This document shows, piece by piece, positions 2,375 to 17,587 of a DNA stretch of 64,000 nucleotides. Source of the DNA: Nitrosopumilus sp. (GTDB lineage: Archaea > Thermoproteota > Nitrososphaeria > Nitrososphaerales > Nitrosopumilaceae); NCBI GenBank assembly GCA_965206745.1, contig OZ242220.1:1152001-1216000 (forward strand). Direction: 5' to 3'. The first letter of the stretch is position 1, and the number at the start of each line of letters is the position of its first letter. The notes under the pieces are model-generated. The model did not search any database and was not told the DNA's origin. It saw nothing but the letters and a program-made list of their open reading frames with translations. The translations under genes were made by a program, and so were the position numbers.

Positions 2375-4147
2375 ATGCTGAAATTTCAAGGCAAACTCGC
2401 ACTAATTACTGGCGGTGGTACAGGCATAGGCCAAGCAATCGCCAAGAGGTTCGTAGAAAACGGTGCCAGCGTAATCATCATGGGTAGACGAAGGGAGCCA
2501 TTAGATGAAACATCAAAGATGCTAGAGGGGATCATCTCTGAAAAAAATAGCGGGGCATCAGTCAGGATATTTTCAGGTGTGGATGTCGCAGATGAAGCTG
2601 CAATGAATGGAATGTTTGAATCACTAAGTAAAGACAGCATTACAATAGATTACCTAATTAACAACGCAGGAGTTTCAGGTCCCGTAACGTGTTTTGCAAA
2701 TGCGACAATGGATGAATTTAAAAGTACAATAGCAATTCACCTGACAGGTACGTTTTGGGGATCTGTTCAAGCATTAAAGGTAATGAAACAGGGCGCAAAA
2801 ATAATTACAATCTCAACATTTTTCACAGAGGAGCGACCATTAGAACAGAGGCCCTACAGGTTTAGAAGTCCATATACAGCATCACAGGGCGCCAAAAATA
2901 GATTGGCAGAGCTGATGTCTTGGGAATTGACAGAGAAGGGGATTATTTCAATTGCGACAAATCCAGGCCCCGTTCATTCAGATAGGATTTACAAGACGGT
3001 GTATCCAAAAGCCGCTGCAGAATTTATGAGGGTCAGTGGATTCGAAGATCTAGTTCCCACAGAGGTGGATGCAGCAAATAAAGAACTGTTGGCATTGCTA
3101 GGAGAGGACGAGGGAGTAATCAAAGAAGGAATTGCAAAAGCTGCTCAAAAACTGGCAAACGGTAAGGATGCCAGCAAGCTTGCAGAGACGTTTACAAACC
3201 TACTAAATAAGATTCAAACCATAGCTGAAAAAGTTCAAAACAACACATCGCATATGATTGCAAACCAAGAATTTCTATCACAGGAGCAGGTTTCAGAATC
3301 AGTTCTTAACTTGTGCGATGATCATATAGCAAAAATACTAAACGGCAAAGTGATTCCAGGGGACAGAGTGTTTTATCCTGTAAAACCTCACATCGGAACT
3401 ACAACGCCGGGAGTCCACCAACCTGACTTTGCAGGAAAAGCAGTTGTCTTTACAATTGATGCAACAGACAAAACAGATGCGCAGAGGGTTGAATTTTTGG
3501 CACAGCATGTTGAAAAGAACGGAGGCAAAGTAGCATGCTTTATCTCACAGACGACCCCGACAGAACTTCAAGAATACATCAGTGGCAAATTCCACTCACA
3601 TGTTGTAGATATTAAAAATGCCAAAGAGGTTGAGAGGTGGCTAAACACGGCCAGAACAAACATCGGAGAAGTTCTAGGAGTGGTTCACGTTACAGGAAGG
3701 TTGACTGAGGGCATAAAGTTAACAGAACTGTCACGTGCTCAATGGGAAGCACTAGTTGAGAAATTCATATCCACCCCTGCAAATGTGGCACAAAGGGCAC
3801 TAGAGCAGTTCGTACCGGGAGGAAACAGAGATCCTCGACTGTACAAAGATGCAAGGGGAGCAATCATGATTATCGGCCCCGACCTGCCAATTGGGAGAAA
3901 AGTGACCGGAACACAAAGGGCACAAATAGAAGTCTTTAGGGGGGCACTAAGGCCATTTACCACAACTGTAAACCAGGAGCTAAGCGATGTGCTAAAATCA
4001 CGGATCAGAATGTTTACAGTCCTCCCAGGTTCTGTAACAGGTTCAGAGCCAGATAACCAAAGAATTGCAGATGCATTTAACTTTCTAGTCTCGGAGAGCT
4101 CTGCCTCATCGTCAGAAGTGACCTTCTGTATAGACGAATCAAGATAA
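2375..4147 (+). CDS. Two-domain SDR oxidoreductase resembling the C-terminal half of bifunctional malonyl-CoA reductase
   Basis: TGGGTGIG, GRR (NADP-type), DYLINNAG, YRFRSPY (YxxRxxY), PGPVHSDR; second degenerate Rossmann domain in the C-terminal half. Confidence 0.85.
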   Translation: MLKFQGKLALITGGGTGIGQAIAKRFVENGASVIIMGRRREPLDETSKMLEGIISEKNSGASVRIFSGVDVADEAAMNGMFESLSKDSITIDYLINNAGVSGPVTCFANATMDEFKSTIAIHLTGTFWGSVQALKVMKQGAKIITISTFFTEERPLEQRPYRFRSPYTASQGAKNRLAELMSWELTEKGIISIATNPGPVHSDRIYKTVYPKAAAEFMRVSGFEDLVPTEVDAANKELLALLGEDEGVIKEGIAKAAQKLANGKDASKLAETFTNLLNKIQTIAEKVQNNTSHMIANQEFLSQEQVSESVLNLCDDHIAKILNGKVIPGDRVFYPVKPHIGTTTPGVHQPDFAGKAVVFTIDATDKTDAQRVEFLAQHVEKNGGKVACFISQTTPTELQEYISGKFHSHVVDIKNAKEVERWLNTARTNIGEVLGVVHVTGRLTEGIKLTELSRAQWEALVEKFISTPANVAQRALEQFVPGGNRDPRLYKDARGAIMIIGPDLPIGRKVTGTQRAQIEVFRGALRPFTTTVNQELSDVLKSRIRMFTVLPGSVTGSEPDNQRIADAFNFLVSESSASSSEVTFCIDESR

Positions 4148-4149
4148 GA

Positions 4150-4602
4150 ATGATAAAGTTCTCAGAGTTTAGAGTGGGTGATGCATTTTATTCCACATGC
4201 AGTATTTCAGACAAAGAGCTAGAAGAATATCTAAAATTTTCCAGAGTCAAAAACGCATTCTTGAAAGATAAAAGAGACGGTGGGCGACAACTAGTATCCG
4301 GAAGAGCAATCCTGTCAAGGATGGAGGGGGAATTTACCAGACTGACTCAGGTTTATGGAAATGATATAATTTTTCTTGGGACAGACGGGGATTCTCAATG
4401 GAAAAATAGGAACACCAGATTTCTCAAACCATTCTATACGGATCAGGTATTGAAATTGAAATTTACAATTTCACAAAAAGAAGACATTGATGAAGAATTT
4501 GGGAAAATTTTTGTTGATTATGAGGGGACCTTGCAAGAGGGCAAAATCATAGTAATATCAAAGAAGAATATCTACAGGATTAAAAAAGAGCCACCCAGAT
4601 AG
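4150..4602 (+). CDS. Hotdog-fold (MaoC-like) protein
   Basis: N-terminal FSEFRVGD, LVSG..IL, RFLKPFYTD..L pattern typical of MaoC dehydratase-like hotdog proteins; 2 nt after the SDR. Confidence 0.6.
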   Translation: MIKFSEFRVGDAFYSTCSISDKELEEYLKFSRVKNAFLKDKRDGGRQLVSGRAILSRMEGEFTRLTQVYGNDIIFLGTDGDSQWKNRNTRFLKPFYTDQVLKLKFTISQKEDIDEEFGKIFVDYEGTLQEGKIIVISKKNIYRIKKEPPR

Positions 4603-4611
4603 AATTCAAAA

Positions 4612-4674
4612 TCAATCTTCTGATTCTTCATCGTCTCTTCTTGACGGCCTTATAGGGACAAACATTATGGTCAT
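4612..4674 (-). CDS. putative 20-aa micro-protein MTIMFVPIRPSRRDDEESED
   Basis: Read manually: ATG 4674 to TGA 4612; TTAAATA box about 22-28 nt upstream, leaderless geometry. Confidence 0.35.
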   Translation of the reverse strand: MTIMFVPIRPSRRDDEESED

Positions 4675-4852
4675 ATGAAAGATTGATTTGTTTTGTATTT
4701 AACAGAGACGTACAAATCATACTTGAATTATTTCAACATGCAAGACAAAATCCAAGTTTCCGCGCATTATCCCGAGAGGCCAGTCAAGTCGGAGTGTTTC
4801 GAATTACTGTTCAGTCATATGCTTGAGGGAATTCCTCTTTAATCATCAAAAA

Positions 4853-5623
4853 TTAAATTCTTGAAAAAAATAATTCAAGTGAATTTTCAAATTGCTTATT
4901 TAATTTTTGAAGATGGGCCGTATCTACCAAAAGAGCCTGTTCATCAAACCAAGGTTTTGACAAATACAAATTCCTATTCATCTCAACTTGAATCCAAGGA
5001 ATCGGGTTATTTCCATATGTTCTGATAATACGCCCTCCATGAAACGGGTCATTTAGGGAGATGTCTTTTCTGCCTATGCCATAAGATTCTGAGATAGAGT
5101 CAGCTAAAAGTTCCAACATCTCTTGTGATGATGTTTCCCCATCATTGTTTGACAAACAAAACAACGGTCTCTTGTTGTTATTTCCATCTGGTGAAATTTC
5201 TGGCGCAACTGATGCCATAGAATGACAATCCAAACACAATTGTAAATCTAGTTTTTTGAGAGATTGTTCAATAGATTTATGATACGGGTTATAATACAAC
5301 TCGATCAGTAGAGTTCTAAGAGCATCATCAGGTTCCTTATTTTCAACATAGATTGGTTTCCGATAACAAGTCAAACTCTTGATCAAGCCGTCGGGATTAT
5401 CAGGAGGCATGTCTTGTAATGAACGATTAAGATCAACAAATGCGCGGGCAATATTTGTCTTGATTACACGTTGAACTTTATCCCCTAAATCATACAGATC
5501 CACTGCAAAAGGATCTGAATCATCAAACAGATCTTTGTGTGTAATAGACAAATGGCCTGCAAGTTCTGCAGGCTTTTGCATCCCACCGTGCGGAATTGAT
5601 AGCAATACAGGAAGTGTATTCAA
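4853..5623 (-). CDS. N-formylglutamate amidohydrolase family protein
   Basis: SIPHGG, DSDP, ARAFVDLNR, YYNPYH, LDCHSM, NDPFHGG, IQVEMNR.LY motifs intact. Confidence 0.9.
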   Translation of the reverse strand: MNTLPVLLSIPHGGMQKPAELAGHLSITHKDLFDDSDPFAVDLYDLGDKVQRVIKTNIARAFVDLNRSLQDMPPDNPDGLIKSLTCYRKPIYVENKEPDDALRTLLIELYYNPYHKSIEQSLKKLDLQLCLDCHSMASVAPEISPDGNNNKRPLFCLSNNDGETSSQEMLELLADSISESYGIGRKDISLNDPFHGGRIIRTYGNNPIPWIQVEMNRNLYLSKPWFDEQALLVDTAHLQKLNKQFENSLELFFSRI

Positions 5624-7252
5624 TTAAATGCCCTCTGCGATCCCATCACGCCTGACCTCTGCCACGCCATGAAATTCATTTTTCGATTGACATTTCATTA
5701 TTGCATGAATTGCACCATGATAAAACGAGTATCTGTCCTTTACAGAAATTTCATAGCCCATTTCCTTGAGATATTCAATTATTTCAGTACGAAATCCCCC
5801 ATCCTCAATGCTGACAGTGCCATTAATGGAGCAATGGAATCGGGGTTTCTCTATTGCAGTACTCATTGACAGATCCCCATCAATTAGCCTTGAAAGAAAC
5901 TGCGTGATGGTAGAGAAGATCCTCTGGCTGCCAGGACTGCCAAGCACCATCCAGAGCTTTGAATTGTTGAAGACCAAGGCAGGGGATACAGAAGTCCAAG
6001 GAATGGAGTTGGGTCTGACATAGAAAGGATGGTTCGGATTTGTGAATTCAAATGCAGACATGTAATTATTGTATAGAAACCCCAAGCCATCAGCTGCTGT
6101 CTTTGAACCATACACAAGTTCCACGGACTGGGTGATCCCTACTGCATTTCCTTGATCATCCATGGTGGAGAGATGGGTTGTGTCTTCGCCTCCAAAATCA
6201 GGATCTATCATCGGCAAAGTGGCATCCATCGAATTGTGTATTGATTCGGCCATCTGTTTTGCAAAGGATCTTTGGAGATGAACCTTCTCCTCAATTTGAT
6301 CATAGGTATGGCGGTTAAATGGCTGTTGCATTCTGTGCAGGAATGCCTTTCTGAAAGTTTCTGCAACAAAATGGTACGAGCCGGGTTTTGAGCTACGTAG
6401 AAACTTTGAAGGCAGATGGTTGAGCATCATCAATGTAAGTAGCAATGTATTTCCCGCAGCAGGAGGGGGCAGAGTGACGACTGAAACGTGACGGTATTTT
6501 CTGCTAATGGTCTTTCTTTGAATGGGTTCAGGAATATATGCCAAATCTTCTTCCTGAATCAACCCACCATTATTTTTCATGTCCTGGGCAATTTTTTTGG
6601 CAATTTCACCATGGTAAAAAATCTGATACCCGTATTTTGAGATCAATGTGAGTGTTTCAGACAGATCTTCTTGGATGAATCTATCCCCGACATCATATGG
6701 CACTAGGCCGTCTTTGAGAAAGTATTTTGCTCCAGATTTTGACTTGATCGAAAGGAAATTTTCCAGCTCCTTCTCTTGCAAATCATGTTGGAGTTGGGTG
6801 ATTTTGTATCCTTTTTTTGCAATGTGGATTGACGGCGCAACAATTTTTTGCCACTCTAAACTACCGTACCTTTCATGTAAAAATCCAATCAAGGCAAGAG
6901 TACTAGGAACAGTGGTTGCCTTGTATCCAAGACGACGATTTTTCTTGTTTGCATATACAGAAGAGTGAACCAGTGAGGGGGACCTGCTAGAACCGTCAAT
7001 TGCGTATGATTTTCCATCGACATGGATAATCCCCATAGATTGGCCTCCGATTCCAGATGCCTGAGGCTCACACACACCCAACGCAAGGGCAGTCGCACAG
7101 GCAGCATCAATGGCATTTCCGCCTTTTTTGAGCATGTCTACTCCAGCTTTAGTAGCATCAGAAAAGGCTGATGAGACCATTCCTTTTTTTGCAACAGAGC
7201 ATTTTTTGTCAGATGTCTGTTTGAACGAATTTTCTATCTGCTCGACGTTCAT
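5624..7252 (-). CDS. ggt: gamma-glutamyltransferase family (Ntn hydrolase), cytoplasmic
   Basis: GGNAIDAA, EPQASGIGG, TVPSTL, PPPAAG, autocleavage site ED/TTHLS, GSPGS, PRFH; no signal peptide. Confidence 0.92.
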   Translation of the reverse strand: MNVEQIENSFKQTSDKKCSVAKKGMVSSAFSDATKAGVDMLKKGGNAIDAACATALALGVCEPQASGIGGQSMGIIHVDGKSYAIDGSSRSPSLVHSSVYANKKNRRLGYKATTVPSTLALIGFLHERYGSLEWQKIVAPSIHIAKKGYKITQLQHDLQEKELENFLSIKSKSGAKYFLKDGLVPYDVGDRFIQEDLSETLTLISKYGYQIFYHGEIAKKIAQDMKNNGGLIQEEDLAYIPEPIQRKTISRKYRHVSVVTLPPPAAGNTLLLTLMMLNHLPSKFLRSSKPGSYHFVAETFRKAFLHRMQQPFNRHTYDQIEEKVHLQRSFAKQMAESIHNSMDATLPMIDPDFGGEDTTHLSTMDDQGNAVGITQSVELVYGSKTAADGLGFLYNNYMSAFEFTNPNHPFYVRPNSIPWTSVSPALVFNNSKLWMVLGSPGSQRIFSTITQFLSRLIDGDLSMSTAIEKPRFHCSINGTVSIEDGGFRTEIIEYLKEMGYEISVKDRYSFYHGAIHAIMKCQSKNEFHGVAEVRRDGIAEGI

Positions 7253-9426
7253 TTTTTTGCTTGTCCGTTTGATGCCAGTTTGTTTAACACCAGTGCCAAC
7301 AAGACACCTCTGTCAACCATGCTGTCTTTTAAAATATATTCATTGGGAGTTCTGTAATCGGTACCAATAGGACCCATTCCTCCAACCATCGAGATGTCTT
7401 GTAAGACGTTACATAGACTAGAAGTTGCAAACCTATGTGTGGATTTAACTTTTATGTCTGCATCCTCTGCAGTTTTCTGAATCAGATCATACAAGCTTGA
7501 GATTTTTTCAGAGTTTTCCACAGGATCTCTTGTAGCTTGTTTTGAAATATGAATATCCAATTTTGATTGATCTTTCTTTTTAGCAATCCTGTGTAATTCT
7601 GAATCAAACCTTTGCCCTTGTGCTAAATTTGAATATCGTGATTCTAAAGATAATTGCCCATACTGGGGGGATCTTCCAAAAGAGGTTCTTGCTCGAAATT
7701 CAGAGATGGTAATTCTAGCATCATCATGATCTTCGGAGACTTTCTTCCAGGAGACTATTTTCTTGCACATATCAGGGATCACATCTTTGATTGTTTCATC
7801 ATGACGCCTAACGTGGGTCAGATCAACATGATACCTAGTGATGCCAGAGCAAGATGTTACAATTCCGCCGTTTTCCAGTCCCCACTTTAGCTCAATAATG
7901 TTTTTTGAGATTTTTGCAGTATCATATACTAGCTGCTTGCTAAATCTTCCACCCAAGCTATCATCAGTGATTAGTAAGACTCCACATTTTAGGTTCTTGA
8001 GCTTTCTAGCAAAACGCAGGGATTTTAGTGCTGCAAGCATGGTCACCAAACCTCCTTTACTTTCAGCAATGCCTGAACCGTAGAGCTTGTTACTAATCTT
8101 GTAAAAAGGCGTGAAATCCTGATTGGCATACCAAGTATCAAGATGTCCCAAGAGCAAAACGTCGTTTTCCTCAGAGTCATGGTTAGTAAAATACAGCATA
8201 TTTCCAACATCAAATTCGTGGTATTCTTGAACGGTGAATCCGAGGGGTGAGAGTCTCTTGGTCATCATTGTGCCAAGTTTGTTGACATCCTCCAGATTAG
8301 TTACACTAGAGTTTACATTTACAAGATGTTCAAGCAGTGCTTCGTTTGTCGTTGCATGGCTTCTGATATGGCTTCGCACTATAGAGCGTAGTGGTTGCGA
8401 TTCAACATTCTCTGAAGATTCTTCATGTTTGTGGGATTCCCCAAAATAGCGCAAGGCTGCAACATCAAGCATTTTGTTGATTAGCGAATCATATGTGTAT
8501 CCGGCACTCTGGGCGGCGGCAAAAAAGGATCCAGTAAGACCCAAGCTGGCCATGGAATTTAGCTCCAGAACATAAAAATTCCCATCTGCATTCATTCGAA
8601 AATCAACGCGGGTGAAATCATTTAATCCCAATTTTTTAAATGCCGCAAGGGAGATCCTTTTGATTTCTGCGGTTTGTTCCTCTGTTAGCAGTGCGGGACA
8701 TATTTTATCTACAGGGGTCTGTTTTTTGTCACTGATGGTCTGAATGCGGTTTGGATCCCCATTAAGATCCATCTCCACGATTGGTAGAATCTCAATATTG
8801 TTGCCATTACCCAACAATCCAACTGCAAATTCTCTGCCAGCAATAAACTGTTCCACTAAAATCTCCTGAGAATATTTCTCCATCTGTTTTACAACTGCTT
8901 TGTGTAAATCATCCCAATTATCAACTACCTCCATTCCCATGGATGTGGATTCCATTTTTGGTTTCACGATTACAGGAAATACCAGATCATCAAAGGTATC
9001 ATCAGGTGATGAAAATACCCAGAAACCAGGAGTGGGAAGATTGTTTTTCTGTAACACGATCTTCGTCATCACCTTATCTTGGACAACTGCATGAGTTTCC
9101 GGACCAGAGCCAGTATATGGAATTCCCAGCATTTCAAGCATAGCAGGTACGTGTGTGTAGCGATTCTGCCCTTGGATTCCATAAGCCATGTTAAACACCA
9201 TGCCGGGCCTCTCCCCTGAAACAACTCTTGGCATGAAATTTTTCATGTCATCGATAAAATTCATCCCTCCTTCGATGATCTTTACAGAGTGACCCCCTTT
9301 TTCCAAGGATTTGGCAACTTTCTCTACAGTTTTGGTACTATAGTGCTCTTTAGTAACCATACCAAAGACATTGATCACGTCATTTTCATCAACTGATTTT
9401 TTGTTATAAACGATAGCTACTTTCAA
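7249..9426 (-). CDS. D-Ala-D-Ala ligase-like ATP-grasp domain fused to an M20/M25/M40 peptidase-like domain
   Basis: N-half: GIPYTGS, DKVMTK, FPVIVKP, LVEQFIAGREF, RVDFR, LELN; C-half: LLLGHLDT, LYGSGIAESKGG, GMGPIG...TPNEY. Confidence 0.88.
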   Translation of the reverse strand: MKVAIVYNKKSVDENDVINVFGMVTKEHYSTKTVEKVAKSLEKGGHSVKIIEGGMNFIDDMKNFMPRVVSGERPGMVFNMAYGIQGQNRYTHVPAMLEMLGIPYTGSGPETHAVVQDKVMTKIVLQKNNLPTPGFWVFSSPDDTFDDLVFPVIVKPKMESTSMGMEVVDNWDDLHKAVVKQMEKYSQEILVEQFIAGREFAVGLLGNGNNIEILPIVEMDLNGDPNRIQTISDKKQTPVDKICPALLTEEQTAEIKRISLAAFKKLGLNDFTRVDFRMNADGNFYVLELNSMASLGLTGSFFAAAQSAGYTYDSLINKMLDVAALRYFGESHKHEESSENVESQPLRSIVRSHIRSHATTNEALLEHLVNVNSSVTNLEDVNKLGTMMTKRLSPLGFTVQEYHEFDVGNMLYFTNHDSEENDVLLLGHLDTWYANQDFTPFYKISNKLYGSGIAESKGGLVTMLAALKSLRFARKLKNLKCGVLLITDDSLGGRFSKQLVYDTAKISKNIIELKWGLENGGIVTSCSGITRYHVDLTHVRRHDETIKDVIPDMCKKIVSWKKVSEDHDDARITISEFRARTSFGRSPQYGQLSLESRYSNLAQGQRFDSELHRIAKKKDQSKLDIHISKQATRDPVENSEKISSLYDLIQKTAEDADIKVKSTHRFATSSLCNVLQDISMVGGMGPIGTDYRTPNEYILKDSMVDRGVLLALVLNKLASNGQAKK

Positions 9427-9879
9427 TACATAATTACAGATTCAACAAGTAAAAAAACTAATCTGGACTAAATAATATTCAAACTGCCACGATGACAGGT
9501 ATTTTCACAGACGGCATAGTCAGAGGGTTTTTAGGATTTCTGACAAATTATGAAGAATTCCCCTCAATCTGCGGGTCATGAGATGATCTGATCTGTGAGG
9601 CACATAAAATATGGATTCCATTCAGATTCATAAAATTACCCATTTGGAGCTTGAGATGTAATCAATCAAATGGTTCTGCAATGATGTCTGTTATAATGCC
9701 CAGATTTTAGATGATGGTTTGAGGGTGGCTGTTTTTGCCATACAGGGCATTAGTAATTCTGGCCAAAGTCGCATTGTTGATTTCAGATCTTGCATCACCT
9801 GTTGCCCAGTTCTGCAGCGTTTAGCAAGTCTTGCAAGAATGGTTGATGTAAAACAATATCTTTAAATTAAAAAATATTT

Positions 9880-10641
9880 TTGCATGTTTCGTTGAACAGA
9901 AAGAATTTATCCATTCTTGTTATTTTGCTATCTGTCGGTATTGGTGTTAGTGTATTTCTGATGATTTTAACATCTTTTGAAGATACAGCTGAAATTTACA
10001 TTGAGGGAGATACGCTGTTTTATCATGGTGAAATTAATGAATCAAGCTATGAAAAACTAAAATCAATAACAGATGAGAATCCAAATGTCAGCACGCTTGA
10101 AATAGCATCTACCGGGGGGGATACAAAATCGGGCAAAGACATCGGAAAGATAGTGTTTGATAGAAAGCTAGACGTGGTTGTTGACGCAATTTGTTTTTCA
10201 TCATGTGCTAATTACATATTTCCCAGCGGAGTAGAGAAATTCATCAAGGAGAACAGTTTTGTTGGTTGGCATGGCTCAGAGTTCCAGTACGATGTTCTGT
10301 CTGAAATTTATGATGAATCCTCTGAAGTACTTTTAAAAAATGCGATAGCAGAGAGTTGTAACAATGATTGGTCATGTTCGATTAGTGATGAATATGTACA
10401 AAACGAGTACGAATTAATCATAAGCGGACTAGAAGATGAAGAGGGATTTTTCGATATGATTGGAATAGACAAAAATGTAACACTAAACGGGTTGTATACC
10501 CTTACGGATTCAGAATGCATTGGGTGGACTCATTCCATATCAGATATGGCCATGTATGGAATTGACAATGTGTCTTATTTGTCAGACATGCCATACCCCG
10601 ATGAGGCCATACTAGAGGAGTATGGCATTTGTCTGATTTGA
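9880..10641 (+). CDS. membrane-anchored exported protein with ClpP/crotonase-like domain
   Basis: N-terminal TM helix; YHGEI, IASTGGD, VVVDAICFSSCANYIF, FVGWHG pattern; acidic. Confidence 0.6.
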   Translation: MHVSLNRKNLSILVILLSVGIGVSVFLMILTSFEDTAEIYIEGDTLFYHGEINESSYEKLKSITDENPNVSTLEIASTGGDTKSGKDIGKIVFDRKLDVVVDAICFSSCANYIFPSGVEKFIKENSFVGWHGSEFQYDVLSEIYDESSEVLLKNAIAESCNNDWSCSISDEYVQNEYELIISGLEDEEGFFDMIGIDKNVTLNGLYTLTDSECIGWTHSISDMAMYGIDNVSYLSDMPYPDEAILEEYGICLI

Positions 10642-10893
10642 TGGTTCTGCACAATGTCAAGTCATACTTGTGAAATTCATCAAAGATTTCAGCGGAAAAA
10701 TAAATCACATCATGCAGACTTGGCCAAGGTCTGATGCACCACGTGCTATGAAAATAATGTTTGTATTTACACACATATTTTAGAGAACAAGTTACAGGAG
10801 AGCCGACTAGTCTCTCCCGCCCTTAGGCCATAAGACCTAATGAACAACATACATTACAAAATTAGTATAAAAACATAAAATAAGATATCGAGG

Positions 10894-11694
10894 CTAAAGA
10901 CCTAGTGGACCATTTCCGTATAGCGAATCAAAGAATAATTTTGCAGCGGCAATTAGAATGACAAGGGATACGAGGATTTGCAGATAACGCTCCTTGATAT
11001 CAACGGATAATCTTGCGCCAATCAATCCCCCAATAAAAGATCCAACAGATAGTAAGCCGGCTTGGAGAAAATCAGGATGGCCCAAAAAACTATGTACGAT
11101 GACACCTGACATTGATGCAAACAACAGAATCATTTGTGATGTTGGTGCGGCTTTTTTCATTGCCATTCCCATCCCAACCACCATCAAGGGCACAAATACA
11201 ACTCCGCCGCCGATGCCAAAAAATGACGAGATCATCCCTGCAAAAAAGCTTGCTCCAATTACAAGGACAATCATTTGTCTTGAGAGGGTCTTCTCTTTGG
11301 TCTCTAGTTTTTTTCTCAAAAATATGTATGCAGCAGATCCAATCAGCACAAACCCAAATAAAATCTTAAAAATATCTGGTGCAACATCAGTTGATACGAC
11401 TGCACCCAAAATCGTTCCAGGGATTGAGAGTAACCCAAGCTTGATGCCCAAAGAGTACTCTATGCGTTTTTGTTTTGAATAAGAGATCGTAGATGCAGTG
11501 GCATTGCTTAATGCGGCAAACAAACTACTGCTTGCAGCAACAGTCGGAGGAAATCCCAGAAATGTCAATACAGGAACAATGACTACCCCACCGCCGAGGC
11601 CAATCATAGAACCCAAAATTCCTGCTGCAAATCCCAACAGAACAAGCCATAGTTGATCAATCATCGTAATGCCAATCGTAGGATTTTCCAGCAT
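10894..11694 (-). CDS. Sulfite exporter TauE/SafE (TSUP) family membrane protein
   Basis: Duplicated GxxGxGGGV..VP motif, about 8 TM helices. Confidence 0.9.
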   Translation of the reverse strand: MLENPTIGITMIDQLWLVLLGFAAGILGSMIGLGGGVVIVPVLTFLGFPPTVAASSSLFAALSNATASTISYSKQKRIEYSLGIKLGLLSIPGTILGAVVSTDVAPDIFKILFGFVLIGSAAYIFLRKKLETKEKTLSRQMIVLVIGASFFAGMISSFFGIGGGVVFVPLMVVGMGMAMKKAAPTSQMILLFASMSGVIVHSFLGHPDFLQAGLLSVGSFIGGLIGARLSVDIKERYLQILVSLVILIAAAKLFFDSLYGNGPLGL

Positions 11695-13388: not shown

Positions 13389-13853
13389 ATGAAATCTAAA
13401 AACTCTAAAAGGCTGGATTCGATCAAGGCGGCACATCAGTCAGAGAGGGAGCGCTCAAGTACAAGAATGGAGGATTATCTAGAAATAATCTCAGAGCTAG
13501 TAGAACTGAAAGGATATGCAACGACTCTGGACATATCAAGGTACATGAATGTGAGCGCGCCAAGTGTTACCAAAATGCTCCAAAGATTAGATGAGGGCGG
13601 ATTTTTAGAGTATGAAAAGTATCACGGAATCAATCTCACAGATAAAGGAACGCAGATAGCAGAAGGGATAAGACAAAAGCATGGAATACTGTTGGAGTTT
13701 TTTGAGATTTTGGGGGTAGGGTATGATACTGCCAATCAGGATACAGAGGGGATCGAGCATCACCTAAACCCAAAGACCATAAAACAGCTAAGAAAATTCA
13801 TTACTTTTCTAAAGGCAAACCCGAAAATCATTGAGAGTTTTAAAAATCTTTAA
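13389..13853 (+). CDS. DtxR/MntR family metal-dependent transcriptional regulator
   Basis: EDYLE.I, VSAPSVTKML.RL, LTDKG, KHGILLEFF, EGIEHHL. Confidence 0.93.
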   Translation: MKSKNSKRLDSIKAAHQSERERSSTRMEDYLEIISELVELKGYATTLDISRYMNVSAPSVTKMLQRLDEGGFLEYEKYHGINLTDKGTQIAEGIRQKHGILLEFFEILGVGYDTANQDTEGIEHHLNPKTIKQLRKFITFLKANPKIIESFKNL

Positions 13854-15672
13854 GATAAAGCTTGATGTCGTTTTGTGATGATGTAAAATCCATCAGAGTT
13901 CTTGCAGCATCAGAGCGTTTAGGAATTTTGATCTGTCCCTTTTTGCCAATCCTGACAGACGTGATGAACTTTTCATTAGCATAGATATCGGCATGCATCG
14001 AAGTGAAATCCCTGTTGACTGTGATAAGCAAAGCGGTTTTTGATTCTGAGAAGCTAAAGGGCAGGTCATTTGATGTTAATGACACATCATCAGATGTCTT
14101 TGCCACCACGTCAATATGGACTTTGAGATGCTTTTCAATCTGATCAATGTTTGAGCCACCTCTTCCGATTATTGATGCAATATATTGCTCATTGACCATT
14201 ACCTTGGCCCGATTATCAGAGAGAATTTCAACTTCAGCGCGAGGGTCATAGCTTCTAAAAGTTTCTTTGATCTTCTCTTCTGCTAGCTTTTCAATTCCAA
14301 CCTTATCTGCCTTCTTCCCTACAGGAACAATGACGTTTTCTTCGCCAAAGGTGTAAATTTCATGCTCCAAAACATCATCATCAAAATTCCTAATTTCAAT
14401 TACTGGTCTGGCCAAATCAGATTCAGTCATGCCAGTCGGGACTTTGACCTTTAACTCCAAATCATAGACTTTCTCAATCGCGCCGCCTTTAACAAAGACG
14501 ACAGTGTCCAGCACGTTTGGAATTATTCCAAGCTCGATTTTTCCAATAAAGCGTTGAATTGCATCAAGGGGGGAGTTTGCATGGACCACGCCTACCATCC
14601 CAACCCCAGTCAATCTCAAATCGGCAAAGGTCACAAAATCTTCTCGTCTTCTCACCTCATCAAAGATTGTATAGTCAGGCCTTACAAGCAGCAAAATATC
14701 AGCAGAATTATCAAAGCTTCCATCAAGCTTGCTGTATTGAGTCACTCCGGAATCAACTTGCAAGTCGCGCGGGGACTCGAATGTTTTGACTATTTTTCCT
14801 TTTTTGTGATAAAAGTTTGCAAGGCCAGATGCCAGAGTACTTTTTCCAGAACCTGGAGAGCCAGAGATGACGATTCCCTCGGCACTGTCAGAGAAACGCT
14901 CCATCAGTTTTTCAGAGATTGCATAGTCGTCAAGGGACAGCTTTACAATAGGATGAACGATTGTGATTTCAAAGGATTCAGAAAATGGCGGATAAGTTAT
15001 CGCAATACGATAATCCTCATGTTGTACCACAGATGCGCCAGTCTTAGAAATCTCCAGTGTGCTAGAGTCAGACATGTTTGCAACGTCTAAAATTTGAGAT
15101 GAGATCATTTCCAGGTAATCTCGTGACAGGGGCTCATCATTTAATTTTGTTAGTACAAACGCTCCAGGCTTGCCTTTTTTTGCCAACGGGCACTGGCTTT
15201 CCTTAAGATGTATACTCATGGTTTCAGGATCAAAAAATTTTAAAAATTCCAATGACTCATTTTTGAATTCAGGCTTGAGAAAGACGGCATCAATGCCCTC
15301 AGCCTGCGCCACCAAATACTGCACATTGTCAGAAGTGTACAAGACCGCATTACTTTGTTTGGCCATGTCAACTATCAGGGAGTCAATCCTACCGCTACTT
15401 GCAAGTTTCACGTCATCAGAAGACGGATGGGTTCCACTTACAGCAACAGTCAATCCGTGGCTTCCAGATAGTGACTTGAGCTTTTGAATTTTTTGAAGGC
15501 CTACGAATCCCTGTTCTTTTCTCTTTGATGCCTGAGATTGCAATTCATCAAAAACAGCCTGCGGGATGATAATTTCAAAATCCCTGATGCCGCCAGACTC
15601 TATTTGGGAAACTAGCTGGCCGTTAATTATTACGCTAGTGTCAGCTACAATTTTCGACAATTTTTTAATCAA
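13840..15672 (-). CDS. PIN-domain / P-loop ATPase / KH protein (PINA, Holliday-junction branch migration ATPase family)
   Basis: N-terminal PIN (VADTSVII, TSD), Walker A GSPGSGKST, ESPRDLQ, RPDYTIFDEVR, KH IIGRGG. Confidence 0.9.
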   Translation of the reverse strand: MIKKLSKIVADTSVIINGQLVSQIESGGIRDFEIIIPQAVFDELQSQASKRKEQGFVGLQKIQKLKSLSGSHGLTVAVSGTHPSSDDVKLASSGRIDSLIVDMAKQSNAVLYTSDNVQYLVAQAEGIDAVFLKPEFKNESLEFLKFFDPETMSIHLKESQCPLAKKGKPGAFVLTKLNDEPLSRDYLEMISSQILDVANMSDSSTLEISKTGASVVQHEDYRIAITYPPFSESFEITIVHPIVKLSLDDYAISEKLMERFSDSAEGIVISGSPGSGKSTLASGLANFYHKKGKIVKTFESPRDLQVDSGVTQYSKLDGSFDNSADILLLVRPDYTIFDEVRRREDFVTFADLRLTGVGMVGVVHANSPLDAIQRFIGKIELGIIPNVLDTVVFVKGGAIEKVYDLELKVKVPTGMTESDLARPVIEIRNFDDDVLEHEIYTFGEENVIVPVGKKADKVGIEKLAEEKIKETFRSYDPRAEVEILSDNRAKVMVNEQYIASIIGRGGSNIDQIEKHLKVHIDVVAKTSDDVSLTSNDLPFSFSESKTALLITVNRDFTSMHADIYANEKFITSVRIGKKGQIKIPKRSDAARTLMDFTSSQNDIKLYLKDF

Positions 15673-15723
15673 TGTTTGAATTATCCTACACCCTAAATTA
15701 CTTTCTCAAGTCAGGGTTCTCAG

Positions 15724-15915
15724 TTGATTCCAAAATGCCTCCTAAAACAGAGGGTTTTGATATGTGTGATACCAGCACTTGCCAAAGAAGAAAGCCAGAA
15801 TTTGGCAACAAAGCAACCAGAGGCATCTTGGGCAAATTACTGCCCACATATGGCCAAAGAGAGACATCTCGATTTGCAAGCCCCAAGGAATCCTCAAAAT
15901 GCAGATTACCCATAA
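15724..15915 (+). CDS. possible small hypothetical protein (frame ambiguous with 15672-16019)
   Basis: 63-aa TTG-start ORF about 28 nt after a TAAATTA box; an overlapping alternative frame is also open. Confidence 0.3.
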   Translation: MIPKCLLKQRVLICVIPALAKEESQNLATKQPEASWANYCPHMAKERHLDLQAPRNPQNADYP

Positions 15916-15993
15916 ACCTGCTTAAAGAAAACGAACTTTCAGGGCTAAAATACCTCACACTCTTAAAAAAATGGAGGTTTGAGGAGTTAAGGT

Positions 15994-16134
15994 ATGGAAC
16001 AAGCCCCAGTCAGAAATGAGGAATTTTACAAAAACTGTACCAAATATTTTGAATCTTTGCGCAAAAAAGGCATGACAGACTATGATTTTGAAGACGAATA
16101 TTATTTTACCATGCCTGCCATATCCAGCCACTAG
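15994..16134 (+). CDS. small hypothetical protein MEQAPVRNEEFYKNCTKYFESLRKKGMTDYDFEDEYYFTMPAISSH (46 aa)
   Basis: Read manually; GAGG/GGAG SD-like sequence upstream; fills the gap before tldD. Confidence 0.55.
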   Translation: MEQAPVRNEEFYKNCTKYFESLRKKGMTDYDFEDEYYFTMPAISSH

Positions 16135-16162
16135 ATAGCAGAAGATTTACGAACCACCACAA

Positions 16163-17587
16163 ATGGTACAAGTTATGGATTCAAAACTATGCGATCTTGC
16201 AGATAAGGCAGTCAGGTACGCACAAGAAATAGGAATCCAGTATTGTGATGTCAGGGCAGAGCATCAGAGACGAATGTCGGTTCTTTTGGAGAATGGTGAG
16301 ACAGAGCATGCCAGGATGGGTGATGATAAGGGAGTTGGAATTAGAATGATCAAAGACAACGTATGGAACTTTTGTTCCATAACAAATCCAGAGTCATTTG
16401 GGCAAATCAAAGATTTGATGGATAGTTCTATAAAAAATTCCAGAGGCGGGAATCAGAGCAGAATAGATCTGCATCCAAACGTTCCAAAAAAGATCAAAAT
16501 AGATTATCAATCAATCAGAAAACCAGGACTAGATGAAATGGTAGAAATAGGACTGGAGTGCAGTAAAATCATTTTGCAAGTTCCAAAGATAATCAAATCA
16601 ATTGTCAATCCATGGTATACATTAAACTCAAAATATTTTGTAAATTCAGAAGGCTCAGAAATACAGCAGAATTTCACAGATACAGTAGTAGAGATGATAG
16701 CAACTGCTCATGATTCAGGAATAACCCAAGCAGTAAACATTACAGAGGGAGGCAGGGGAGGACTGGAACAAATAACAAAGGAGGACAAGATCTATCAGAG
16801 CGCAAAAGAAATTGCCTCAAAGGCATCGCAATTAACTCAAGCAAAACCTGCTAAAGAAGAGAATGCAACAGTGGTGATGAATCCAGACTTTGTGTCACTG
16901 CTCACACATGAGATACTCGGACACCCATCAGAAGCTGATAGAGTACTGGGAAAGGAGATGGCATGGGCAGGGGGTGCATGGTGGAAAGGCAAGCTAGGAG
17001 AGAAGATAGGTTCTGAGAACCTAAACGTGTTTGATGACCCCACAATAAAAGAAAGCCTTGGATGGTATCAATTCGATGACGAGGGAATTGAGACTAGAAG
17101 AACAACCCTGGTTGAAAAAGGGGTTTTGAAGAACCACATGCAAAGCAGAGAGACTGCGCAGATATTCAATTCAGCGCCCACAGGAAACATGAGGGCCTCA
17201 AATTATCGATTCATGCCCCTAATACGCATGGCCTGCACATGTATCGGTAACGGGGATAGAGACGTAGAGGAGATAATAAAGGAGGTCAAATGCGGCTATC
17301 TAATTTCCAATATGAAGATCCCCTCAATTGACATGAAACGATATAATTGGAGCATATCGTGCCAGTATGCACAGAGGATTGAAGATGGAGAAATTACGGA
17401 TTTGCTAAGAGACGTGATAGTGATGGGAACAGCACCGGAATTCTTTGAATCCATCGACGCGTGCGGTAACGACTTTACAGTAAGACCGATAACTAATTGT
17501 GGCAAAGGTGATCCAATGCAATCAATGATAATGGGAAATGGCGGGCCTACAGTCAGAGGGACCGCAACGGTGAAGAGTGTGAATTAG
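16163..17587 (+). CDS. tldD: TldD/PmbA family metalloprotease (TldD type)
   Basis: HEILGHPSEAD zinc motif, FDDEG, GNMRA, CGKG.P.Q. Confidence 0.9.
   Translation: MVQVMDSKLCDLADKAVRYAQEIGIQYCDVRAEHQRRMSVLLENGETEHARMGDDKGVGIRMIKDNVWNFCSITNPESFGQIKDLMDSSIKNSRGGNQSRIDLHPNVPKKIKIDYQSIRKPGLDEMVEIGLECSKIILQVPKIIKSIVNPWYTLNSKYFVNSEGSEIQQNFTDTVVEMIATAHDSGITQAVNITEGGRGGLEQITKEDKIYQSAKEIASKASQLTQAKPAKEENATVVMNPDFVSLLTHEILGHPSEADRVLGKEMAWAGGAWWKGKLGEKIGSENLNVFDDPTIKESLGWYQFDDEGIETRRTTLVEKGVLKNHMQSRETAQIFNSAPTGNMRASNYRFMPLIRMACTCIGNGDRDVEEIIKEVKCGYLISNMKIPSIDMKRYNWSISCQYAQRIEDGEITDLLRDVIVMGTAPEFFESIDACGNDFTVRPITNCGKGDPMQSMIMGNGGPTVRGTATVKSVN

Follow-up and report, generated by a model that had tools for sequence, protein, structure and literature searches.

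We analysed a stretch of 64,000 nucleotides (positions 1,152,001-1,216,000 of Nitrosopumilus sp. contig OZ242220.1, assembly GCA_965206745.1; hereafter the window, whose positions serve as coordinates) and focus on three adjacent genes therein. The first encodes a fusion of an ATP-grasp ligase, related to D-alanine-D-alanine ligases (Ddl; EC 6.3.2.4), with an M20 peptidase-like domain. The other two encode proteins of the gamma-glutamyltransferase (GGT; MEROPS T03) and N-formylglutamate amidohydrolase (FGase) families. Judged by gene order, this trio is a conserved unit across domains and phyla. Our preferred but tentative reading is that it may act in the cytoplasm as a make-and-break module, i.e., one that both forms and cleaves a short gamma-glutamyl peptide or another amide with glutamate in it, and that this would be linked to ionic or osmotic homeostasis.

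A scan of species-representative genomes yielded 566 relatives of the fusion. All locus counts refer to the best 80 of these 566, found with the fusion as query; the loci (50 archaeal and 30 bacterial-labelled) share common descent, so that fewer independent cases are behind them than the counts suggest. Fusion, GGT and FGase genes follow each other in the same order and on one strand in 51/80 loci, while 12/80 have fusion and GGT only (mostly at contig ends) and 17/80 the fusion alone. Among the bacterial-labelled loci, the whole trio is found in 19/30, namely in Nitrospinota, Binatota, Gemmatimonadota, Chloroflexota, Fibrobacterota and one Woeseiaceae bin. When the 857 neighbouring open reading frames (ORFs) are clustered, fusion, GGT and FGase are the sole widely shared families, i.e., there is no fourth. 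A preliminary description of the same DNA had proposed that a genuine system would recur as a trio across phyla, which is what the gene neighbourhoods reveal. Its presentation as an archaeal peculiarity has to be dropped, since most of the trio's diversity is bacterial.

Within the genus, the fusion is matched in 42, the GGT in 41 and the FGase in 38 of 101 genomes. All three are matched in 38/101 (where GGT and FGase of genome G084 are remnants only) and none in 58/101. In a phylum-wide draw, full-length matches occur in 11/251 genomes, all of them Nitrosopumilaceae (10/34 plus the window genome), compared with 0/216 in other families.

Some copies look decayed. Short GGT and FGase remnants lie beside an intact fusion on G084:C55, GGT copies with in-frame stops are found at G097:C1:922471-924094, G042:C6:41434-43056 and G071:C21:37789-39399, and a fusion copy with an internal stop at G062:C51:2621-4765. 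Several genomes hold two GGT copies. On three contigs binned as Planctomycetota, Phycisphaerales and Woeseiaceae (loci L041, L084 and L098), the trio genes nest with short branches inside Nitrosopumilus/Nitrospinaceae clades, which is probably due to binning error rather than recent transfer.

We now consider the individual proteins, starting with the ligase half of the fusion. Pfam Dala_Dala_lig_C matches residues 145-320 (E-value 1.4e-33, 116.6 bits). The nearest solved relatives are Ddl (best E-value 8.6e-29), with VanA and L-amino-acid ligase also near, and Foldseek aligns the ligase half to DdlB/DdlA with TMt values of 0.81-0.84 at 20-28% identity. Eleven residues are invariant in 72/72 family members (E27, Y29, K155, E159, S162, E192, R273, D275, R277, E288, N290). 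They include the ATP/Mg/acyl-phosphate core (K155, E159, E192, R273, D275, E288, N290), of which R273, D275, E288 and N290 are likenesses to DdlB/VanA. Given that the catalytic core is kept, we take the ligase to be active.

The substrate side, in contrast, is specific to the family. D-Ala recognition in DdlB presumably depends on a Glu-Ser-Tyr triad, the KY omega-loop and the NTxPG...SL segment. Here, the Glu is kept (E27), while the Ser150 position is T/V/I and the Tyr216 position L/K/M. NSMASLG stands for NTxPGMT in the 72 family members, and DdlB's S150, Y216 and NTxPG are kept in 0/72. That is, the Ddl substrate side is replaced by a pattern of its own (NMAYGIQGxxRYTH, the extra invariant R277, NSMASLG, no KY omega-loop). 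The lack of Ddl hallmarks had been pointed out before on the basis of ELNSMASL and, at the Ddl omega-loop, RIQTISDKK; both are present in the window ligase and align accordingly. Furthermore, the ligase misses the curated Ddl cut-offs (NF002378: 164.1 vs. 243; TIGR01205: 152.8 vs. 245.65) and scores below the cut-off of every other NCBIfam Ddl/Van model. Alanine racemase PF01168 has 0 matches in the 99.6%-complete window genome (the control matched 11/14 genomes; other racemase types were not searched).

From the sub-cut-off scores, the replaced D-Ala positions and the missing PF01168 racemase, together with the intact core, we infer that the N-terminal domain would be an ATP-dependent carboxylate-amine ligase that is active, stems from the Ddl lineage and uses a substrate other than D-Ala. 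That the ligase is a plain D-Ala-D-Ala (or D-Ala-D-X) ligase serving an envelope polymer has next to no probability given these observations, even though the best Pfam, NCBIfam and PDB matches are Ddl and some sources label relatives of the ligase 'D-alanine-D-alanine ligase'. Unlike Ddl, it is fused to an M20 domain and lacks a murein context, its constant partners being cytoplasmic-looking amidases and not Mur or pseudomurein genes. The earlier view that this is not a cell-wall Ddl is thus upheld.

Relatives of the ligase domain occur in other architectures. The ESM Atlas returns only unnamed 'Ddl family protein' clusters for it. The close relatives P0170, P0177, P0180 and P0185 (42-48% identity class) are fused to 7TM_transglut membrane domains, an arrangement that resembles the Rlo system, which is linked to hypo-osmotic stress (PMC11957051). 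At L020:4941-6905 (G028, another family of the order), a 654-aa fusion combines an N-terminal SAM-methyltransferase with a Ddl-like ATP-grasp domain and is 33% identical to residues 74-326 of the window ligase. A stand-alone 348-aa relative is present in G054, where its gene context gave no functional clue.

The C-terminal half of the fusion is matched by Pfam Peptidase_M20 at residues 424-714 (9.1e-10, 39.2 bits vs. a cut-off of 24.6). The AlphaFold2 model of the fusion has a mean pLDDT of 85.1, with the linker 331-341 below 50. Foldseek aligns the M20 half to carboxypeptidase G2 (CPG2) with TMt values of 0.79-0.80 over ~390 columns, lid/dimerisation lobe included, and the best sequence matches are also CPG2 and M20 glutamate carboxypeptidases. 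While the whole two-lobed fold is thus shared with these enzymes, the metal ligands and the catalytic Glu are replaced in the fusion. We take the M20 co-catalytic site to consist of His, Asp, Glu, Glu/Asp and His plus a general-base Glu, and assign residue roles in CPG2 on this assumption. In the alignment with CPG2, GIADDKGG becomes GIAESKGG, TDEEKGS becomes TDDSLGG and the Glu of FEP becomes Lys in the window protein. That is, the bridging Asp is changed to Glu, Glu-Glu to Asp-Ser, the next Glu ligand to Lys and the last His to Arg.

These changes extend to the family. The second-Glu position is Glu in 0/72 fusions, the last-His position is Arg in 46, Gly in 16 and His in 3, and the general base is D in 55/72. 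The first His is mostly kept (60/72; it is lost as well in more distant fusions), and the other metal positions are E, S, K/G and R. The degenerate pattern is itself conserved (E455, K457, D488, D489, S490, R692, E696). The M20 domain is therefore probably a non-catalytic binding or dimerisation/oligomerisation module and not a peptidase. The Lys and Arg at former metal-ligand positions suggest a role in binding substrate or product or in oligomerisation; the pocket would hold no zinc and may bind an anionic ligand. A predicted complex of the M20-like domain (342-725) and the GGT-like protein, run without control pairs, scored 0.00 against a mark of 0.32.

The GGT-family protein matches Pfam G_glu_transpept (3.7e-112, 376.2 bits) and narrowly passes TIGR00066 (369.7 vs. 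357.85 bits). Its Thr nucleophile T358 is kept in 59/59 trio-linked GGTs. At the positions of E. coli R114, N411, Q430, D433 and G484, we find S88 (with R90 two residues on), E378, Y397, A400 and S442. This pattern is conserved among the 59 trio-linked GGTs and differs from the E. coli gamma-glutamyl donor pocket, which we assume to be formed by R114, N411, Q430 and D433. The protein has no counterpart of the E. coli lid-loop stretch and aligns without gaps to the GGT of B. licheniformis.

The FGase-family protein matches Pfam FGase (1.5e-43, 149.9 bits). Residues H12, D64, R67, H115 and H134 are kept in 47/47 proteins and E214 in 46/47, i.e., the His/Asp/His/Glu set is the same as in HutG, a member of the same Pfam family. 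It differs from HutG in missing the TIGR02017 hutG equivalog cut-off (89.7 vs. 278.75 bits), in that its gene always follows a GGT-like gene, and in its genome, where urocanase and histidase (PF01175, PF00221) have 0 matches each. The earlier remark that no histidine-utilisation genes account for the FGase, i.e., that it is not HutG, is borne out.

With regard to location, no 19-residue window reaches a Kyte-Doolittle hydropathy of 1.6 in the trio proteins, and N-terminal windows stay at or below 0.47. Since neither a hydrophobic N-terminus nor a membrane-like window is seen, all three proteins look cytoplasmic by this crude test, without signal peptide or membrane span; the secreted or periplasmic location typical of GGT is thus not indicated. 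The preliminary description had listed three amide-hydrolase folds without signal peptide. The folds are there and the missing signal peptide agrees with our test, but probably only two of the hydrolases are active.

A GGT next to a Ddl-like ligase brings to mind a glutathione-like thiol cycle. GGT is the classical glutathione hydrolase and would recycle a gamma-glutamyl thiol, and the ligase would be the synthetase half as in bifunctional GshF, whose ATP-grasp half is Ddl-like. In addition, gshA is present in another order of ammonia-oxidizing archaea (AOA; PMC7554672). We nevertheless consider such a cycle very unlikely: the GshA families GCS2 (PF04107) and Glu_cys_ligase (PF04262) have no match in the 99.6%-complete window genome, the donor pocket differs from that of glutathione-using GGTs at four aligned positions, and the GGT looks cytoplasmic.

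Next, we turn to the genes around the trio. Ion-transport genes of unrelated families lie beside it in 24/80 loci (13/50 archaeal, 11/30 bacterial). As a baseline, 2.9% of the window-genome positions are within 9 kb of such a gene when using the same queries. In one archaeal clade of fusions (clade B, see below), genes for CorC/CNNM, CorA and Ion_trans (a voltage-gated-type channel) stand between fusion and GGT, with Na_H_Exchanger-CBS nearby. In Nitrospinota and Binatota, MgtE, MgtE_N-CBS and MscS-like genes adjoin the trio on either side, followed by a CDF gene in several loci. Gemmatimonadota also belong to the bacterial lineages with ion-transport neighbours, and further bacterial cases are CorC (L068), CorA (L085), MgtC (L075), MntP (L097) and a TrkA-type K+ channel (L086). 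The transport families are mutually unrelated, which argues against simple inheritance, and their recurrence points to an ionic or osmotic role. At L018:6086-7750 (minus strand, G002), a 554-aa TnpB/IS605 OrfB-like gene (OrfB_IS605 plus Cas12f1-like TNB) is found between fusion and GGT in the place where relatives have CorA; an 86-aa remnant like the start of CorC is left.

Some loci offer other partner enzymes. In L078 and L080, which lack GGT and FGase, the gene immediately upstream of the fusion is an M20 gene with all canonical motifs (HxD, Asp, Glu-Glu, His) intact, which suggests a hydrolase supplied in trans. In L074, a class-I GATase/Peptidase_C26 gene comes after the fusion, and in L087 an AbgT transporter and a divergent GGT come before it. 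A KamA-family radical-SAM aminomutase (L080:5313-6632) precedes the M20 gene of L080 and has Lys at the position of Asp293 and Thr at that of Asp330, two substrate-binding residues of lysine 2,3-aminomutase (LAM). Likewise, in protein P0160 a 48%-identical ligase domain is fused to a KamA-like domain with Arg at the LAM Asp293 position. Loss of these LAM Asp residues with a basic residue instead presumably marks a glutamate 2,3-aminomutase. A KamA-like aminomutase gene was not found in the window genome.

Such partners could also be read as a catabolic or scavenging route. There, nitrogen or carbon would be gained as the hydrolases break down a gamma-glutamyl or N-acyl amino acid compound, either taken up or made by the cell, and the ligase would re-capture or activate an intermediate. 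This would suit a trio in which two of three genes are hydrolases, the AbgT-family transporter directly upstream in one bacterial locus, and a patchy, island-borne distribution as expected for a niche-specific nutrient trait. We hold it to be unlikely, as the ATP-consuming ligase is the most constant member (80/80 loci, albeit in a search that started from it), the trio has no conserved uptake system beside it and all three proteins look cytoplasmic. Moreover, the ligase keeps some hydrolase partner where GGT and FGase are missing, which fits synthesis plus turnover better.

In the make-and-break reading that we prefer, the ligase would join a carboxylate and an amine at the cost of ATP and form a small amide-linked compound. 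The fused M20 domain would bind substrate or product or oligomerise, and the GGT-like and FGase-like hydrolases would cleave the ligase product or trim its two ends. Since GGT, C26, CPG2-type M20 and FGase/PghP-type hydrolases all act on glutamate amide bonds, the compound is expected to hold glutamate in gamma-glutamyl and/or N-acyl-glutamate linkage. More specifically, it might be gamma-Glu-Glu, a short gamma-oligoglutamate or a gamma-glutamyl/X-Glu dipeptide, given that gamma-Glu-Glu is a gamma-glutamyl-X and an acyl-Glu bond at once. It could serve as organic anion, as Mg2+/K+ counter-ion or buffer, or as compatible-solute reservoir. Glutamates are established anionic osmolytes that balance K+ (PMC1224877). 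The preliminary description had left the product as an acyl- or glutamyl-amide with several possible roles; of these, the osmolyte or ion-balance option gains from the ion-transport genes, while the thiol buffer loses ground with the missing GshA.

A bolder form of this reading, to which we assign only a small chance, is a reversible glutamate condenser, in which the ligase would chain glutamate of the cytoplasm into short gamma-linked oligomers; these would be held by the M20 domain, and the GGT-like and FGase-like enzymes would set the glutamate free again. If so, osmotic particle number and Mg2+/K+ buffering would shift within minutes with no gain or loss of carbon or nitrogen. This would be a system of osmotic and cation homeostasis new to science, tied to Mg2+ transporters, K+ channels and mechanosensitive channels in many lineages, and it would serve marine nitrifiers, Nitrosopumilaceae and Nitrospinota alike.

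Several observations weigh against the make-and-break reading. GGT-family and FGase-family enzymes also act on non-glutamyl substrates, i.e., the glutamate part of the argument follows from family names. The donor-pocket Asp, which we take to bind the free alpha-amino group of the gamma-glutamyl donor, is mostly lost (Ala in 41, Ser in 11 and Asp in 3 of the 59 GGTs), so that a plain gamma-glutamyl substrate is not assured. The link to ion transporters is lineage-specific, with 0/14 clade A loci and not the window either having one, and may in part reflect that both kinds of genes gather in variable islands. For C26, AbgT and the aminomutase, the link is found in one locus or one protein each. 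Finally, an active M20 domain is conceivable if its degenerate site still binds one metal.

We also compared the trio with known systems. An ATP-grasp ligase with partner peptidases is of an already known kind, and the constant co-encoding of an ATP-dependent amide ligase with amide hydrolases that is typical of amidoligase-peptidase systems is seen here as well (51/80 loci, with other partners elsewhere). In RimK/RimB and RloABC, too, the partners of an ATP-grasp ligase are peptidases, which reverse or regulate what the ligase makes; Rlo further includes a peptidase-like domain that is inactive, and loss leads to a hypo-osmotic stress phenotype (PMC11957051). The trio differs in that its ligase is Ddl-like and not RimK, its hydrolases are an N-terminal nucleophile (Ntn) hydrolase and an FGase and not retropepsin-like, and its pseudo-domain is an M20 domain fused to the ligase.

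This pairing is one argument for a RimK-like tagging of proteins or peptides. The ligase would add glutamate or another residue to a C-terminus or side chain, the M20-like domain would recognise the acidic C-terminus, and the GGT-like and FGase-like enzymes would erase the tag. Further arguments are that a CPG2-like fold presumably binds C-terminal glutamate in active relatives, that the Nitrospinaceae loci L082 and L093 have RimK, a RimB-like Zn_protease and an AstE-like gene in the vicinity of the trio, and that L082 and L096 hold a circularly permuted ATP-grasp plus Alpha-E. We still regard tagging as rather improbable. No candidate target gene is conserved with the trio, the nearest solved ligase relatives (Ddl, VanA, L-amino-acid ligase) act on free amino acids, and GGT-family and FGase-family enzymes are, to our knowledge, small-molecule amidases. 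In the Nitrospinaceae loci (L082:509-7780 and 13795-16284, L093, L096), the trio is part of a larger block of several amidoligase systems. On one side, this block holds the AstE/AspA-like gene, RimK, the RimB-like Zn_protease, MgtE, MgtE_N-CBS, two MscS-like genes and an ECF sigma factor, and on the other side the circularly permuted ATP-grasp and Alpha-E.

The two hydrolases invite a comparison with poly-gamma-glutamate, which is cleaved by Bacillus-type GGT, CapD and PghP-type zinc hydrolases. Like Bacillus-type GGT/CapD, the trio GGT is an Ntn hydrolase without lid loop, and, like B. licheniformis GGT, it has Glu where E. coli has N411. As with PghP, it is paired with an FGase-type enzyme of zinc-hydrolase fold, and the two could attack a gamma-glutamyl chain from two sides. 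Unlike the Bacillus-type enzymes, the trio GGT looks cytoplasmic and has Ala/Ser for the donor-pocket Asp, and there is no PgsBCA-type synthetase, with synthesis by an ATP-grasp enzyme instead.

Glutamate-derivative osmolytes are made on demand, some of them by ATP-grasp-type ligases (Ngg). The putative trio product would be glutamate-based like those of the beta-glutamate and N-acetylglutaminylglutamine amide pathways, and among the relatives of the ligase there are cases of linkage or fusion to a putative acidic-substrate 2,3-aminomutase. In contrast to these pathways, the trio comes without amidotransferase or acetyltransferase and the window genome without aminomutase. In the literature, we found no description of the trio or the fusion and no characterised function, whereby the search did not extend to the amidoligase survey of Iyer et al. 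2009, which may mention the module, or to the AOA supplementary tables. To that extent, the earlier designation as a candidate for an undescribed system is in line with our search. New features appear to be the way in which the genes are combined, the degeneration of the fused M20 domain, the changes in the GGT and the linkage to ion transport.

The features of the locus are compiled in Table 1.

Table 1. Features in and around the trio (window positions; strand as + or -, a dot where none applies)
Feature	Position	Strand	Description
Left core flank	2375..4602	+	590-aa double SDR gene and 150-aa gene (Pfam)
Downstream intergenic region	4603..4852	.	250 bp; minority variant in one run
FGase-family (N-acyl-glutamate-type) amidohydrolase	4853..5623	-	256 aa; TTG start abuts GGT stop
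GGT-family Ntn hydrolase	5624..7252	-	542 aa, ATG start; Thr358 nucleophile codon 6179-6181; donor pocket diverged
Fusion gene	7249..9426	-	725 aa, TTG start; ligase 1-330, linker 331-341, CPG2-like M20 fold ~342-725
M20-like domain	7252..8403	-	residues 342-725; metal site degenerate
ATP-grasp ligase domain	8437..9426	-	residues 1-330; core catalytic residues kept, Ddl substrate hallmarks not
Upstream intergenic region	9427..9879	.	453 bp; operon promoter presumed here
253-aa ORF without known family	9880..10641	+	extra DNA of the site, outside the conserved module
Right core flank, TauE/SafE-family membrane protein	10894..11694	-	Pfam

All three ORFs are on the minus strand and translationally coupled: the TGA stop of the fusion overlaps the ATG start of the GGT in ATGA (7252-7249), and the TAA of the GGT (5626-5624) directly abuts the TTG of the FGase (5623-5621). 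This arrangement had been described beforehand with exact coordinates, as had the gene-poor flanks among core genes, which agrees with the two intergenic regions and with SDR and TauE being near-universal in the genus. No ORF of at least 60 aa lies wholly within 9427-9879; two short minus-strand ORFs (115 and 112 aa) enter from 9880-10641. An Rfam search of 4000-11000 gave zero matches with E up to 0.1, and a sigma-70 promoter/terminator scan, a model not applicable to archaea, gave no signal above shuffles.

Short contigs from three runs (whose RNA nature is only guessed) match parts of all three genes at 95-99%, which is not proof of transcription. One contig of run X3 (depth 61, compared with 442 for the main form) swaps 48 bases (4733-4782) for 405 other letters and represents a minority variant or small insertion downstream of the trio. 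An excision or circle junction considered for a low-depth X3 contig was rejected, since the contig touches 4865-4887 and 9864-9882 by 23 and 19 letters, respectively, and then diverges.

To place the insertion, we compared the interval between the SDR gene (2375-4147; found in 97/101 genus genomes) and the TauE gene (96/101). Among the 82 genomes with both on one contig, the gap has a median of 627 bp and is below 1.05 kb in 64/82. In the window it measures 6752 bp (4147-10894; G000:C1:1156144-1162897), i.e., the synteny comparison proposed earlier identifies the trio as an insertion among core genes. In 13 other genomes, 2-49 kb are found at this site (G069 49 kb, G095 36 kb), and in two further genomes SDR and TauE are 1.4 Mb apart. 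A version of the cluster also adjoins TauE in G066, G060 and locus L056 and lies inside the 49-kb insert of G069; most trio-positive genomes carry the trio at other sites. Given the variable gap sizes and the trio's presence mostly elsewhere, the comparison indicates that the SDR-TauE interval is a variable hotspot and that the trio is mobile cargo of a ~6-kb insertion in this strain. At the insertion borders, only short two-copy matches and no terminal repeats were found, and there is no integrase among the flanking ORFs. GC content does not separate the trio from its flanks.

The 253-aa ORF in the extra DNA of the site is hydrophobic in an N-terminal stretch and matches neither Pfam nor PADLOC. 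It is strain-specific (0/100 other genus genomes), has a 53% paralogue at G000:C1:1703101-1703859 and is not in loci L021-L100.

In the fusion tree, all archaeal rows fall into one starred clade of 44, which includes one contig binned as Planctomycetota and apparently mis-binned; the other side consists of 28 bacterial rows. The archaeal rows form sub-clades A (15 rows, including the window), B (19) and C (10), which share ~54% identity. In the GGT tree, the archaeal rows likewise form a single clade, in which the ligase-clade labels are scrambled such that the starred branches force at least 6, 7 and 4 changes for A, B and C, respectively. For instance, L034 and L040 have sister GGTs, although their ligases belong to clades A and C, respectively, and GGTs of 85-89% identity can follow ligases of clades only ~54% identical (L011-L019, L021-L077). 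This discordance suggests a cassette-like recombination of ligase and hydrolase genes between lineages.

As far as an unrooted tree can suggest, a single old transfer into Nitrosopumilaceae is favoured, given that the trio is broadly spread in bacteria but confined to one family among archaea. That is, going by trees and insertion sites, the trio is an old accessory module that moves and recombines within Nitrosopumilaceae and not a recent import. The preliminary description had called it horizontally acquired, which is correct for this site in this strain; it does not extend to a recent origin of the archaeal genes, which form one deep clade in one family and have no distinctive GC content.

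Mobility of this kind is also what one would expect of island cargo for antagonism or defence, i.e., of a system that makes an antimetabolite or bioactive peptide and protects its own cell by the hydrolases, or of one that acts against viruses. The trio occurs in about 40% of the genus, at variable sites and in a hotspot, the ligase and GGT trees disagree with three ~54%-identical ligase clades swapped before near-identical hydrolases, copies with internal stops and remnant copies occur, and ligase relatives are fused to 7TM_transglut domains. However, the three proteins match no PADLOC model, the conserved neighbours include no exporter, immunity gene or precursor peptide, and the trio is stable across at least five bacterial phyla with conserved active-site patterns, which looks like housekeeping-type selection. 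We therefore think such a function improbable.

Regardless of the product, the fusion would represent a metallopeptidase fold recruited as the non-catalytic partner of a bond-making enzyme, where its ancestors cleaved that bond. The two steps of marine nitrification are carried out by Nitrosopumilaceae and Nitrospinota. Both groups of marine nitrifiers hold the trio, which is accessory in the sampled genus (~40%). Should the trio make an anion, buffer or solute based on glutamate, this would be a new component of the cytoplasm and part of the organic nitrogen released by nitrifiers, and strain differences in salinity or sediment tolerance could be explained.

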